DNA of 39,718 nt from Escherichia phage ElsieAttenhofer_Bas105: sequence record PQ850601.1. The stretch is one strand, 5' to 3'. The stretch's first letter is position 1. Every line of letters begins with the position of its first letter. The position numbers and the translations under genes were made by a program. Shown in pieces: positions 1,608 through 19,395 of the stretch. The notes below the pieces were generated by a model, which did no database searches, was not told the DNA's origin, and worked only from the letters and a program-made list of their open reading frames with translations.

Positions 1608-3367
1608 GTAAAGACTTAGTGGCGCGTCAGGCGCTAATGACTGCACGTATGAAGGCAGACTTCGTGTTCTTCCTGTTCGTCCTGTGGAAAGCTCTGTCAC
1701 TCCCAGTCCCGACTCGCTGTCAGATTGACATGGCGAAGAAACTATCGGCTGGGGACAACAGGCGCTTCATCCTACAGGCGTTCCGTGGTATAGGGAAGTC
1801 CTTTATTACGTGTGCCTTCGTTGTCTGGAAGCTATGGAACAACCCAGACTTGAAGTTCATGATTGTGTCGGCCTCAAAGGAACGAGCTGATGCTAACTCC
1901 ATCTTCATCAAGCGAATCATCGACCTCATGCCTCAGCTTCAGGAACTCAAACCTAAGCAGGGACAGCGAGATGCGGTTATCAGCTTCGACGTCGGACCAG
2001 CCAAGCCAGACCACTCACCTTCGGTTAAGTCCGTTGGTATCACTGGTCAGTTGACTGGTAGTCGTGCTGACATCCTGATTGCCGATGACGTGGAGGTTCC
2101 GAACAACTCAGCGACTCAGGCTGCCCGAGACCGTCTGTCAGAGCTTGTGAAGGAGTTCGACGCTATCCTGAAGCCGGGAGGTACAATCATCTATCTGGGT
2201 ACTCCTCAGAACGAGATGACCTTGTATCGTGAGCTGGAAGGCCGTGGGTACACCACTACTATCTGGCCTGCTCGTTATCCACGCGACAGGAAGGACTGGC
2301 AGTCTTACGGAGACCGTCTGGCTCCCATGCTTCAGGCAGAGCTTGAAGAGGACCCTGAGGCCTTCTATTGGCGTCCGACCGATGAAGTTCGATTCGACGA
2401 TACTGACCTGAAGGAACGTGAGCTGTCCTACGGTAAAGCTGGCTTCGCTCTACAGTTCATGCTTAACCCGAACCTAAGTGATGCTGAGAAGTACCCTCTG
2501 AAGCTCCGTGACCTTATCGTAGCCGACTTGGACCCAGCGTCCAGCCCAATGGTCTACCAATGGTTGCCTAACCCTCAGAACAAGCGTGAGGACGTTCCTA
2601 ACGTTGGACTCATGGGTGACTCATACCACACGTATCAAACTGTAGGTTCTGCCTTCAGTTCGTACACCCAGAAGATTTTGGTCATTGACCCTAGTGGTCG
2701 TGGTAAGGATGAAACTGGCTATGCGGTACTGTACCAGCTCAACGGCTACATCTTCGCTATGGAAGTTGGTGGTATGCGTGGTGGTTATGAAGACTCTACG
2801 CTGGAAGTACTAGCTAAGATTGGTCGTAAGTGGAAGGTCAACGAATACGTCATTGAGGGTAACTTCGGTGATGGTATGTACCTTGAGCTATTCAAGCCTG
2901 TAGCGGCCCGTATCCATCCTGCGGCTGTAACTGAAGTGAAGAGTAAGGGTCAGAAAGAACTCCGAATCTGTGACGTTCTGGAGCCTATCATGGGGTCTCA
3001 CCGACTTATCGTTAACGCTGCTGCTATCGTCCAAGACTACCAGTCGGCCTCTGATAAGGATGGTGTTCGTAACCCTATCTACTCTCTCTTCTACCAGATG
3101 ACACGTATCTCTCGTGAACGTGGAGCCTTGGCACACGATGACCGACTTGACGCGCTGGCTATAGGTGTACAGTTCTTCGTTGAGTCTATGGCTAAGGATG
3201 CCAACAAGGGCGAACGTGAAGTCACTGAGGAGTGGCTGGAGGAACAGATGGAGAACCCACGGAAAGGCTTCGAGTCCATCCACACTGAGTTCTGGGACAA
3301 TGGGGTCCGGGTAACTCACGATACGGACGACGAGCTGGGACTAGGGTCATACGTTACGTTCCACTAG
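1604..3367 (+). CDS. Terminase large subunit (T7 gene 19 homolog), TTG start
   Basis: 587-aa ORF colinear with remembered T7 gp19 ([19 protein letters not shown] Walker A-like, [24 protein letters not shown] nuclease); N-terminal alignment and TAAGGAGG 7 nt upstream support the TTG start at 1604. Confidence 0.95.
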
Positions 3368-3461: not shown

Positions 3462-3484
3462 ACTTAACTATCACTATAGGGAAG
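3462..3484 (+). promoter_or_regulatory. Phage RNAP promoter (phiOR-like, near right genome end)
   Basis: TTAACTATCACTATAGGGAAG matches the 12-copy promoter consensus; predicted +1 G at 3479. Confidence 0.7.
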
Positions 3485-6276: not shown

Positions 6277-6299
6277 ACTTAACTATCACTATAGGACTC
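6277..6299 (+). promoter_or_regulatory. Phage RNAP promoter upstream of gene 1
   Basis: TTAACTATCACTATAGGACTC; predicted +1 at 6294. Confidence 0.65.
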
Positions 6300-14852: not shown

Positions 14853-16598
<1,746 letters not shown>

Positions 16599-16599
<1 letters not shown>

Positions 16600-16763
16600 T
16601 GTTAAATAAACTTAAAGCTCGATACCATCGGTTCATGTACAAATGGTGGAGCGATGAAGCAACCTACCTGTCGAACATTCTGGGAGACCAGCGGTTCAAC
16701 TCTGAGGCATGGAAGAAAGCTAACCGGAAGTTCATATATCACTTCTTGCGTACAGACTACTAA
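16599..16763 (+). CDS. Small hypothetical protein (54 aa, GTG start)
   Basis: GTG with GGAGG 8 nt upstream; translation VLNKLKARYHRFMYKWWSDEATYLSNILGDQRFNSEAWKKANRKFIYHFLRTDY; lies between gene 4 and the next promoter. Confidence 0.35.
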
Positions 16764-16781
16764 GCTATCACTGTAGGATAG
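16759..16781 (+). promoter_or_regulatory. Phage RNAP promoter (variant)
   Basis: ACTAAGCTATCACTGTAGGATAG; +1 at 16776. Confidence 0.5.
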
Positions 16782-16825
16782 ACTCAAGGTCATTCATTTC
16801 GAGTGGCCTTTATGATTAGACTATA
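16779..16825 (+). promoter_or_regulatory. RNase III-type processing stem-loop, copy 3
   Basis: Stem AAGGTCATTC (16786-16795) / GAGTGGCCTT (16801-16810), loop ATTTC; conserved flank TAGACTCAAGG. Confidence 0.5.
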
Positions 16826-16834
16826 GGAGACATT

Positions 16835-17236
16835 ATGATTGACTGTAGTGAGTGGACCGGGTGCCGAGATAAGTTCGGCTATGGCATGCGCAGGGTCAAT
16901 GGGAAAGTCCGTAGGCTACATCTCATAGCATATGAGGAAGCTAATGGTCCAATACCAAAGGGACTGGTTGTCCGTCATAAGTGTGACAACCCGTCATGTT
17001 ATAACCCTGATCACCTAGAGCTTGGGACACGAGCTGATAACGTTAAGGACCGGGATGTCCGTGGACGTATAGCAAAGGGTGTAAAAGTTGGATGTGCCAA
17101 GTTGACACCTGAAATTGTAGCAGAGGCTAAGAGATTGTACGCTTCTGGTGGATGGACTCACCGCTCTCTGGGGGAGAAATACGGCGTAGGGCATAGGACA
17201 ATAGCCAGAGCGATTGGAGGTGCTACATGGATTTAA
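16835..17236 (+). CDS. HNH homing endonuclease
   Basis: 133 aa; HNH core RHKCDNPSCYNPDHLELGTRADN with Cys-rich zinc ligands; free-standing between the gene 4 and gene 5 modules; 3' end overlaps the gene 5 start. Confidence 0.85.
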   Translation: MIDCSEWTGCRDKFGYGMRRVNGKVRRLHLIAYEEANGPIPKGLVVRHKCDNPSCYNPDHLELGTRADNVKDRDVRGRIAKGVKVGCAKLTPEIVAEAKRLYASGGWTHRSLGEKYGVGHRTIARAIGGATWI

Positions 17237-19395
17237 GTAACGTTTATGGCTCCGACATCGAGACCAACGGTCTCCTTGACACCGTGTCCCAGTTCCATTG
17301 TGGGGTCCTGATTAAGGCCGAGTCGAATGAGACCCTTAAGTATGGGGTAGCGCCGATGGTCGGTATCGTCGGTGGCTTCAAAGAGTATGTACAGAAGGTG
17401 GAAGAAATTGCTGCAACGCCTACGGGTATGCTGGTCTTCCATAACGGTATCAACTATGACGTCCCGGCTATAGACAAGCTGAAGCGTTTGTACTTTGGGA
17501 AACGATTTAACTTCCCGAAACACAAGATGATTGATACCTTGGTGCTGGGCCGCTTGATGTATCCCAACATTAAGTTCTCAGACATGGGCGCGGTGAAAGC
17601 TGGTCGTCTGCCACCTAAGATGATGGGACGCCAGTCTCTTGAGGCTTGGGGCTATCGTCTCGGTGAGATGAAGGGTGAGTACAAACACGATTACGTTGCC
17701 AAGTGCAAGGCCGAAGGTATCGAATATAAGTCTGGGGACGAATGGTTGTTCCCGTCTCAGGAGATGCTGGACTATAACGTTCAGGATGTTGTGGTTACAC
17801 TGGCATTGTTCAAGAAATTCCTGACTGACAAGTATTACTTCCAGTCTGAACAGTTTGCTTTCGAACAGATTTATGCGCTGCGTCTGGAACATGATGCTGC
17901 GTGGACCTGTGCGAAGATGGAACGTAACGGCTATCCGATGAACACCGAGATGGTCGAAGGCTTATATCGTGAACTCACTGTCAAACGTGCGGAGTTGCTG
18001 GACAAGCTGCGCTCGACTTTCGGTAGCTGGTATGCACCGAAGGGAGGCAAGGAGTTCTTCAAGCACCCAAGGACAGGTAAGGACCTTCCGAAGTATCCGC
18101 GAGTCGTGTATCCTAAGGTCGGTGGCATCTTTAAGAAGCCGAAGAACAAAGCTCAACGCTTAGGTCTTGAGCCTTGTGAACTCGATACGCGAGACACGAT
18201 GGAGGGAGCACCATTCACGCCAATCACTTACGTTGAGTTTAATCCGGGAAGCGGAGACCACTTAGCGAAAGTCCTGATGGAGCGTGGCTGGGAGCCTGTG
18301 GACTTCACTGACACCGGGAAACCTGTAGTCGATGACGAGACGTTGGAACACGTTAAGTTACCAGACGCAGAGGCTCAGGCTTGCGTAGAGCTGGTCCGTG
18401 AGTATCTGGTGGTCCAGAAGCGCATCGGTCAGGCGGCTGAAGGTAAGAACGCATGGTTGAAACTTGTGGGTCCAGACGGACGTATGCACGGTTCAATCAA
18501 CCCTTGTGGAGCAGTAACCGGACGTGCGACCCATAGTTCACCAAATATGGCTCAGGTCCCGGCTAACGGTGCTCCGTATGGTGAGACTTGCCGTGGTGCT
18601 TTCGGTGCAGCGTGGAACAAGAAGGACGGTAAGCCAGACCCTTGGATTCAAGTGGGCGTGGATGCTTCAGGTCTTGAGCTTCGTTGTCTGGGGAACCGAG
18701 CGACTCCGTTTGATGGTGGTGAATACGCCAAGACTGTGGTCGAAGGTGACATCCACTGGGCCAACGCAGTCAACGCTGGGCTAGCACCTAACGTCCCACG
18801 CGACAAGTCGAGCCACGACCACGATGCTTTCCGTGATAACGCTAAGACGTTCATCTATGCGTTCCTGTATGGTGCAGGGGCCGCGAAGATTGGACTGATA
18901 GTTGGCGGTGGTAAGAAGGAAGGTGCTGCCCTGATGAAGAAATTCATTGAGGGTACACCAGCTATCAAGGATCTGCGAGAGGCTGTGCAGAACACGCTCA
19001 TCTCAGAGTCGAAGTGGGTAGATGGTGAGAACATCGTGAAGTGGAAACGGCGCTGGCTGAAAGGTCTGGATGGTCGTCGCATTCACATCCGGTCTCCACA
19101 CTCAGCACTGAACGCATTACTTCAGGGTGATGGTGCGGTTGTCTGTAAGCACTGGATTGTCGAGACCGAGCGTATGCTCGAAGAGGCCGGGTATGTCCAC
19201 GGCTGGGAAGGAGACTTTGCGTACATGGCATGGGTTCACGACGAATTGCAGATTGCGTGTCGTACTCAGGAGATTGCCGAAGAAGTCGTCAAGATTGCTC
19301 AACTTGCTATGCGTAAGGTGGGTGAGTTCTATAACTTTAAATGTGTCCTTGATACCGAAGGTAAGATTGGACCAACGTGGAAGGAGTGTCACTAA
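17227..19395 (+). CDS. DNA polymerase (T7 gene 5 homolog, family A)
   Basis: 722 aa; exonuclease motif DIETNGL, FHNG..YDVP, palm motifs RDNAKTFIYAFLYGAG and VHDELQ, colinear with remembered T7 gp5. Confidence 0.97.
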   Translation: MDLSNVYGSDIETNGLLDTVSQFHCGVLIKAESNETLKYGVAPMVGIVGGFKEYVQKVEEIAATPTGMLVFHNGINYDVPAIDKLKRLYFGKRFNFPKHKMIDTLVLGRLMYPNIKFSDMGAVKAGRLPPKMMGRQSLEAWGYRLGEMKGEYKHDYVAKCKAEGIEYKSGDEWLFPSQEMLDYNVQDVVVTLALFKKFLTDKYYFQSEQFAFEQIYALRLEHDAAWTCAKMERNGYPMNTEMVEGLYRELTVKRAELLDKLRSTFGSWYAPKGGKEFFKHPRTGKDLPKYPRVVYPKVGGIFKKPKNKAQRLGLEPCELDTRDTMEGAPFTPITYVEFNPGSGDHLAKVLMERGWEPVDFTDTGKPVVDDETLEHVKLPDAEAQACVELVREYLVVQKRIGQAAEGKNAWLKLVGPDGRMHGSINPCGAVTGRATHSSPNMAQVPANGAPYGETCRGAFGAAWNKKDGKPDPWIQVGVDASGLELRCLGNRATPFDGGEYAKTVVEGDIHWANAVNAGLAPNVPRDKSSHDHDAFRDNAKTFIYAFLYGAGAAKIGLIVGGGKKEGAALMKKFIEGTPAIKDLREAVQNTLISESKWVDGENIVKWKRRWLKGLDGRRIHIRSPHSALNALLQGDGAVVCKHWIVETERMLEEAGYVHGWEGDFAYMAWVHDELQIACRTQEIAEEVVKIAQLAMRKVGEFYNFKCVLDTEGKIGPTWKECH

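Follow-up and report, generated by a model that had tools for sequence, protein, structure and literature searches.

What kind of gene lies across the start of the DNA polymerase gene of Escherichia phage ElsieAttenhofer_Bas105, and how might the polymerase be kept in use with another reading frame running into its first codons? The window analysed here, the whole 39,718-nt stretch of record PQ850601.1, is a complete, circularly permuted K1F-like genome (Kayfunavirus, T7 relatives) in which all large ORFs lie on the + strand. The nearest record is that of BDX03P1 (Kayfunavirus, unannotated), with 96.8% identity across the locus. A sequence-only reading had described a 133-aa ORF overlapping the gene 5 start by 10 nt, and it is present at 16835..17236. 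The ORF begins with ATG and ends with TAA at 17234-17236, the gene 5 ATG occupies 17227-17229, and the 10-nt overlap reads ATGGATTTAA. As a separate ORF it has a start and a stop of its own, and it lies inside neither an intron nor an intein. We propose, as the probable explanation, that it is a free-standing homing endonuclease gene carried in a mobile cassette of ~392 nt placed after the gene 5 ATG. The same reading had put the ORF between the gene 4 module and gene 5; this is correct as to position, but the ORF is not simply intergenic, as it lies precisely on the gene 5 start codon and takes the place of the polymerase's first eight codons (Table 1).

Table 1. Features of the gene 4 to gene 5 locus; positions count from the first letter of the window.
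Feature	Position	Strand	Basis or remark
Gene 4, primase/helicase, 566 aa	14856..16556		upstream of HNH ORF
gp4.2-like ORF (DUF5480)	16285..16599		upstream of HNH ORF
gp4.3-like small ORF, left neighbour of the cassette	16599..16763	+	ORF; 4.3 annotated in K1F/CLB_P1
Predicted phage-RNA-polymerase promoter ACTAAGCTATCACTGTAGGATAG	16759..16781	+	59 nt upstream of HNH ATG; predicted +1 G 16776, ATG 16835
Conserved stem-loop with GAGUGGCCUUUAUGAUU motif	16772..16826	+	just upstream of HNH/gene 5 initiation region; fold -25.4 kcal/mol, z -2.2
Shine-Dalgarno TAGGAGA of the window HNH gene	16824..16830	+	4 nt before HNH ATG; common allele has the original gene 5 Shine-Dalgarno GGAGGATTAACC there
Predicted HNH endonuclease gene, free-standing, His-Me finger, 133 aa	16835..17236	+	ORF, Pfam, PHROG, tblastn to T7 gene 7.7 region, CR44b annotation, dN/dS
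Nuclease core, aa 27-70	16913..17044	+	H48 putative general base; N69 putative metal ligand; H29/C50/C55/H60 putative Zn ligands
C-terminal three-helix helix-turn-helix DNA-binding domain, aa ~89-128	17099..17218	+	
Replacement Shine-Dalgarno GGAGGTG for gene 5, within the last HNH codons	17216..17222	+	sequence
Cassette-borne gene 5 start, ATG + 24-nt patch (codons 2-9, DLSNVYGS)	17227..17253	+	vs MFDLK[S/D]IWGS in HNH-less allele; candidate target/immunity site
Gene 5, T7-type family A DNA polymerase, 722 aa, uninterrupted	17227..19395	+	ORF; relatives' annotation; Pfam DNA_pol_A on orthologues

The assignment of the protein is the firmest part of this proposal. The clear HNH/zinc motif that had been noted is borne out by the motif RHKCDNPSCYNPDHLELGTRADN at residues 47-69 and by a match of Pfam HNH_3 (PF13392) to residues 27-70 (61.2 bits against a cut-off of 24.8, E 7e-17). 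The PHROG HNH families also match, PHROG 59 'HNH endonuclease' at E 1e-29, and these two E values place the ORF beyond chance. The zf-His_Me_endon model stays under its cut-off (20.2 bits against 27), and HTH_23 matches weakly at residues 94-127. H29, H48, K49, C50, C55, L61, N69, D72 and R78 are invariant in 53 homologues, H60 is conserved in at least 90% of them, and all are present in the window protein. The predicted catalytic histidine, H48, is therefore kept along with N69 and the Cys/His ligands. The roles given to these residues in Table 1 are those that we infer for them by analogy. It is the sole HNH-type gene in the window.

An AlphaFold2 model built on the 53-sequence alignment (mean pLDDT 88) shows a beta-beta-alpha core followed by a C-terminal three-helix bundle, the core having the beta-beta-alpha-metal fold of the His-Me finger superfamily. 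We propose that the product would be a monomeric two-domain enzyme, in which an N-terminal His-Me/HNH nuclease is joined to a C-terminal helix-turn-helix, in an I-HmuI-like build. Domain order and fold agree between the model and I-HmuI, the nicking homing endonuclease of phage SPO1 (PDB 1U3E), with a global TM-score of only 0.42 and no sequence-level match. Whereas I-HmuI is intron-encoded and 174 aa long, the window gene is free-standing and without an intron, and its nicking is putative. A sequence search of PDB chains returned no detectable match to the protein, and NCBIfam holds no family for it. Rfam gave no matches on the whole window, which thus contains no group I intron or known RNA element.

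The nearest named homologue is T7 gp7.7, with 48.5% identity over 98% of the length (tblastn); gp7.7 is encoded between genes 7.3 and 8, whereas the window gene is at gene 5. Our literature search on gp7.7, or on a Kayfunavirus HNH gene at gene 5, returned genome descriptions only and no characterisation. Orthologues in the same slot are CR44b 7.7B, EPr2_0031, CLB_P1 7.7, 101118UKE1_040 and those of ST17, CHX131, T147P5, phiYIO1-1 and BDX03P1. The first of these is already annotated '7.7B predicted homing endonuclease' and the second 'putative HNH nuclease'. The window gene resembles its slot orthologues in its 133-aa length, the ATGGAYTTAA overlap and its domains, with 80-84% amino-acid identity (97% to BDX03P1). 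The element appears to be a free-standing homing endonuclease of the ordinary, well-known sort, with examples already annotated in related phages; DNA cleavage is its predicted activity.

Is the gene a fixed part of these genomes? A search with the gene 4 to gene 5 region matched 277 phage records, 188 of them covering at least 80% of the query, and in most of the listed records the match covered only 83%, split into two pieces and lacking the HNH gene. When the HNH DNA by itself served as query, 12 records reached at least 80% coverage, all carriers having the same junction. The ORF is thus not universal but present in 12/277 related records, counts that include GenBank/RefSeq duplicates. The 12 records represent nine distinct phages (BDX03P1, CR44b, EPr2, CLB_P1, T147P5, 101118UKE1, CHX131, ST17 and phiYIO1-1), for which the recorded hosts are E. 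coli, Citrobacter, Providencia and Salmonella, several records giving none. Even a single ICTV species, Kayfunavirus LM33P1, is polymorphic: 101118UKE1 has the gene and LM33_P1 does not. In IMG/VR, the empty-site pattern occurred nine times and the filled-site junction twice. Such sporadic presence at a fixed site among otherwise syntenic close relatives is one of the features expected of a free-standing homing endonuclease gene.

Comparison of the HNH+ and HNH-less junctions, anchored on the conserved flanks, allows the cassette to be delimited. The empty site of type A (K1F, LM33_P1, Vec13, Peacock) reads GGAGGATTAACC ATG TTT GAC CTT AAG AGT ATC TGG GGT TCT GAC ATC GAG, gene 5 being MFDLKSIWGSDIE. 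At the filled site of the common allele (CR44b and others), GGAGGATTAACC ATG TTT GAT TGC leads into the HNH gene, and the right-hand junction reads GGAGGAGAAAC ATG GAC TTA AGT AAC GTA TAT GGG TCT GAC ATC GAG. The empty site of type B (Milel, L015; Bia, OX460967; TM1, L030, MT808983) reads GGAGGATTAACC ATG GAC TTA AGT AAC GTA ..., so that these HNH-less phages have the cassette-type gene 5 N-terminus MDLSNVYGS behind the original Shine-Dalgarno. From these sequences it follows that the filled allele is type B plus exactly 392 nt, placed directly 3' of the gene 5 ATG. The HNH gene of the common allele takes over the polymerase's original Shine-Dalgarno and ATG, and gene 5 receives from the 3' end of the cassette a substitute GGAGG and ATG together with eight altered codons (2-9).

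This arrangement bears directly on the earlier suggestion that the HNH gene may disturb translation initiation of gene 5. That suggestion is unsupported, since the 3' end of the cassette itself provides gene 5 with new initiation signals, namely a conserved GGAGG Shine-Dalgarno and its own ATG. Although synonymous sites are saturated and the encoded residues differ (IGGATWI / IGGETWT / LRSETWI), all three HNH lineages keep GGAGG/GAGGAG before gene 5, and the ATGGAYTTAA overlap is conserved in each of them. The third lineage, L017 (a Logan assembly, 74% amino-acid identity), keeps the ATGGATTTAA overlap and GAGGAG before the ATG with differing amino acids. We propose that gene 5, which is essential, would still be expressed because the cassette carries the replacement Shine-Dalgarno, ATG and codons 2-9, and that imprecise loss of the cassette would be lethal. 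We found no paper describing the exact slot architecture, the three deep lineages or the way in which the gene 5 initiation region is captured and replaced.

If the cassette is mobile, its history should differ from that of its flanks. A sliding-window profile shows flanks of 92-99% identity around a sharply bounded divergent block at ~16750-17253. Alignment-based identities, compared by Fisher test, show the HNH gene to be significantly more alike than its flanks in 4 pairs and far less alike in others. The HNH genes of CR44b and EPr2 are 99.2% identical on flanks of 93.3% and 95.3% (p 2e-6), those of EPr2 and 101118UKE1 98.5% on flanks of 92.9% and 95.0% (p 5e-5), and those of CHX131 and ST17 98.0% on flanks of 87.5% and 94.1% (p 6e-8), whereas the window and CR44b share only 74.0% in the HNH gene on flanks of 93.6% and 94.9% (p 1e-31). 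Discordance in both directions points to several old endonuclease lineages moving between backbones. The window allele appears to be a distinct lineage, shared only with BDX03P1. Unlike the other slot orthologues, to which it has 74% nucleotide identity, this allele uses its own Shine-Dalgarno, TAGGAGA, rather than the captured gene 5 signal, and has an extra promoter 59 nt upstream.

It is also conceivable that the gene is ancestral and has been deleted repeatedly in most Kayfunavirus lineages, without active homing, but we give this reading little chance of being correct. Three deeply diverged alleles with an identical slot and 3' overlap do suggest old residence, and the type B sites, together with a decayed copy described below, show that loss occurs. 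Vertical descent, however, cannot explain 98-99% identical HNH genes on 88-95% identical flanks. The gene 5 SNP haplotypes, of which there are two main ones, likewise argue against it: beyond the 24-nt patch (first informative variable site at +26), both occur in HNH+ and in HNH-less genomes, so that the downstream haplotype is unlinked to HNH status. The spread of the gene over nine carrier phages with such varied recorded hosts, or none, also speaks against simple loss.

Loss is nonetheless documented. L018 (Logan SRR14630139 contig, 3001-3352) carries a decayed common-type HNH gene that has lost 40 nt, with a frameshift, and has several replacements, among them C50W, which hits an invariant Cys; it retains the 3' end with the gene 5 Shine-Dalgarno and ATG; L017 and L018 are single metagenome or SRA assemblies, the decayed copy being that of one Logan contig. 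The type A, L018 and type B sites look like stages of a homing cycle, namely invaded, decaying and lost. The type B sites could be products of precise loss or, alternatively, the ancestral pre-insertion state; their pattern had no match in IMG/VR. L018 is exactly the outcome expected if the window gene were a catalytically dead relic or a pure DNA-binding protein, persisting only because its 3' end is the gene 5 initiation region, and the 3' end cannot be lost because the gene 5 Shine-Dalgarno and ATG lie inside the ORF. We nevertheless consider such a relic most improbable for the window copy, in which all invariant family residues are intact and purifying selection extends across the whole ORF, not just the 3' end.

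We favour instead an active homing endonuclease gene, and the substitution pattern is consistent with a protein in use. All full-length HNH copies are intact (10/10). Between the window and the common allele, at 74% nucleotide and 80-84% amino-acid identity, pS is 0.71 (saturated), dN is 0.12-0.15 and dN/dS is 0.04-0.07 (~0.05), against a gene 5 dS of only 0.22-0.35 for the same phage pairs. The HNH gene thus appears to be under purifying selection, and a dN/dS of ~0.05 with saturated dS in three lineages indicates that the protein has long been kept functional. Such strong, long-term purifying selection over three deeply diverged lineages fits a phage-beneficial gene equally well. The nuclease could then be domesticated, kept to exclude the markers of competitors in co-infection, to degrade host or rival DNA, or to tune polymerase expression by translational coupling. 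Conservation of the ATGGAYTTAA overlap and of the gene 5 Shine-Dalgarno in all lineages would agree with this, as would the position of the window allele behind an extra phage promoter. We regard domestication as unlikely all the same, since ~95% of close relatives replicate without the gene, the identities follow the pattern of an element that passes from one backbone to another, a decayed copy exists and the extra promoter also occurs in an HNH-less genome (L019). Marker exclusion, moreover, is mechanistically the same as homing.

Taken with the kept catalytic residues, the sporadic presence and the HNH-versus-flank discordance support the original view of a selfish homing-endonuclease element. 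Neither of the two findings that the sequence-only reading had named as refuting it, a universally present ORF with a conserved non-nuclease function or a lost catalytic His, was obtained. The accompanying view that the site is a recombination hotspot holds in part: the mosaic boundaries are sharp and another cassette (a Dcm methyltransferase) occupies the slot in GA2A, with the nuclease as a possible cause.

Where would such an enzyme cut? Within ±1.5 kb, only one polymorphism is linked to the HNH gene, the 24-nt patch at 17230-17253 (12/12 HNH+ vs 0/12 type A genomes), and for this reason the patch is the likeliest target or immunity site, although the linkage is partly trivial, as the patch physically adjoins the cassette. 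No distal HNH-linked (immunity) SNP was found within ±1.5 kb, the best uncorrected p being 0.035 among ~3,400 columns. Immunity based on sequence would thus require a target that overlaps both the insertion site and the patch, which lie immediately upstream of the codons for the polymerase exonuclease motif DIE, beginning at codon 10. We propose that, when an HNH-less relative infects the same cell, its DNA would be nicked or cut by the enzyme at or near the intact gene 5 start (the type A sequence above, from GGAGGATTAACC ATG TTT to GGT TCT). Recombinational repair on the HNH+ template would then copy the cassette into the HNH-less genome. HNH+ genomes would escape cutting because insertion splits the site and the right half is rewritten. 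The scheme is modelled on I-HmuI and on the T4 mob/seg genes (PMC2988022); in it, DNA cleavage itself, the location of the target and the choice between a nick and a double-strand break are what we infer.

Another possibility is that both alleles are cut, or that the cut falls elsewhere. In T4, free-standing endonucleases usually have their cut sites hundreds to thousands of bp from their own genes (PMC2988022), so the HNH target may likewise lie away from the insertion site; unlike the situation for those distant cutters, the only HNH-linked polymorphism here is directly at the insertion site. Should the enzyme recognise the unmodified polymerase start, then target, insertion site, immunity patch and host-gene translation signals would coincide within ~60 nt. 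We tentatively raise a further possibility, somewhat on the doubtful side, that the cassette holds gene 5 'hostage', only precise excision being viable and the selfish element being stabilised in this way, and that the rewritten N-terminal codons double as an immunity determinant against its own nuclease.

Free-standing phage homing endonuclease genes beside essential genes are a well-established concept (PMC2988022; PMC10055350). The T4 mob/seg genes are small cassettes that lie between conserved essential genes or adjoin them; they often have no promoter and are carried on existing transcripts, and are inherited by double-strand-break repair with co-conversion, or 'intronless homing' (PMC2988022). 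The window gene is like them in being a small nuclease cassette that abuts an essential gene, and unlike them in that its cassette replaces the neighbour's translation-initiation region and first eight codons. A close parallel is found in the same genus: Hafnia phage Ca (Kayfunavirus) has an HNH cassette of 397 bp, with a stop that overlaps the ATG of the terminase gene, which spontaneously deletes within a single phage stock (PMC8861465). It is near-identical in size to the window cassette and has the same overlap of the endonuclease stop with the ATG of an essential gene, but it lies at the lysis/terminase junction, upstream of the terminase large subunit, and its HNH is paralogous.

Other HNH genes of Kayfunaviruses (K1F gp5.3; those of EPr2 before gene 4 and after gene 5) are 30-36% identical paralogues. 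K1F gp5.3, one of the gp5.3-type HNH genes of T3, T7 and K1F and a 33%-identical paralogue of the same Pfam family, differs from the window gene in that it lies, as in CLB_P1, inside a split gene 5. The T3-type 5.3 enzyme reportedly cuts the polymerase gene at the intron insertion site, far downstream of the position of the window HNH gene, as Bonocora & Shub are said to have described in 2009.

The extra promoter deserves separate consideration. The pattern CTATCACNNTAGG occurs 12 times in the window, each time on the + strand, where 0.57 matches would be expected. A scan of 16400-17500 for sigma-70 promoters and intrinsic terminators found none, and the relevant promoters appear to be of the phage-RNAP type. 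The copy at 16759-16781 corresponds in position to T7 phi4.7. It is absent at this position in 15 relatives, both HNH+ and HNH-less, where the sequence is 12 nt shorter; among HNH carriers only the window allele and BDX03P1 have it. We considered whether it is a strict part of the HNH cassette and rejected this, as L019, an HNH-less genome from IMG/VR in which the upstream gene is different, has the promoter at the same place. The stem-loop that follows is near-invariant in all relatives, with or without the HNH gene, and its GAGUGGCCUUUAUGAUU motif resembles that of the T7 RNase III processing (R) sites.

These observations leave general concepts unchanged. For annotation, they make the ORF a free-standing HNH homing endonuclease of the gp7.7 family, by prediction, and place the gene 5 start at 17227. 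The K1F-type 'empty' and window-type 'filled' sites form a small, easily testable allele pair with which the specificity of the uncharacterised T7 gp7.7 family could be mapped. Kayfunaviruses of therapy cocktails carry interchangeable selfish nuclease cassettes at the starts of essential genes, and mixed infections could therefore convert the 5' end of the polymerase gene in cocktail partners. Careless deletion of the HNH ORF would take away the polymerase's Shine-Dalgarno. The 12 promoter copies provide the phage's promoter map: their cores, CTATCAC(T/C)NTAGG preceded by (c/t)TAA(a/g), lie at 3468, 6283, 9829, 11536, 12403, 14789, 16765, 21212, 24030, 25036, 29599 and 37376 (+). A 'promoter + AGACUCAAGGUC hairpin' module, for which Rfam has no family, is present in the window in at least three places; the promoters at 6283 and 9829 are likewise followed by the hairpin.

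Several further features of the slot and its surroundings were seen in relatives. In Escherichia phage GA2A (L014, 2530-3402), the slot just ahead of gene 5 contains not an HNH gene but one for a 290-aa C5 cytosine DNA methyltransferase (PF00145, E 6.5e-24), which overlaps the gene 5 start by 8 nt and has the same GGAGGATTAA ribosome-binding site. Accessory cassettes of different kinds can therefore occupy this slot. In K1F (L001, 4636-5031), CLB_P1 (L006, 5017-5412) and CHX131 (L008, 5018-5413), gene 5 is split (join) around the second HNH gene, gp5.3, which presumably encodes an intron-borne endonuclease. Paralogous HNH_3 genes abut other replication genes in EPr2 (L003, 220-585 and 5121-5402) and in L017 (748-1113), one overlapping the gene 4 start by ~25 nt and one lying just after gene 5. 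With paralogues before gene 4 and after gene 5, EPr2 thus has three HNH genes bracketing genes 4/5, in an 'HEG island' arrangement. The HNH gene of phiYIO1-1 (L010, 2520-2954) has a 33-nt tandem duplication (GEKYGVGHRTI x2) in the helix-turn-helix domain, giving a 144-aa protein. Within gene 5 of the window itself, positions 17350-17550 are 100% identical to K1F and only 85-92% identical to most other relatives, forming a local mosaic patch near the cassette.
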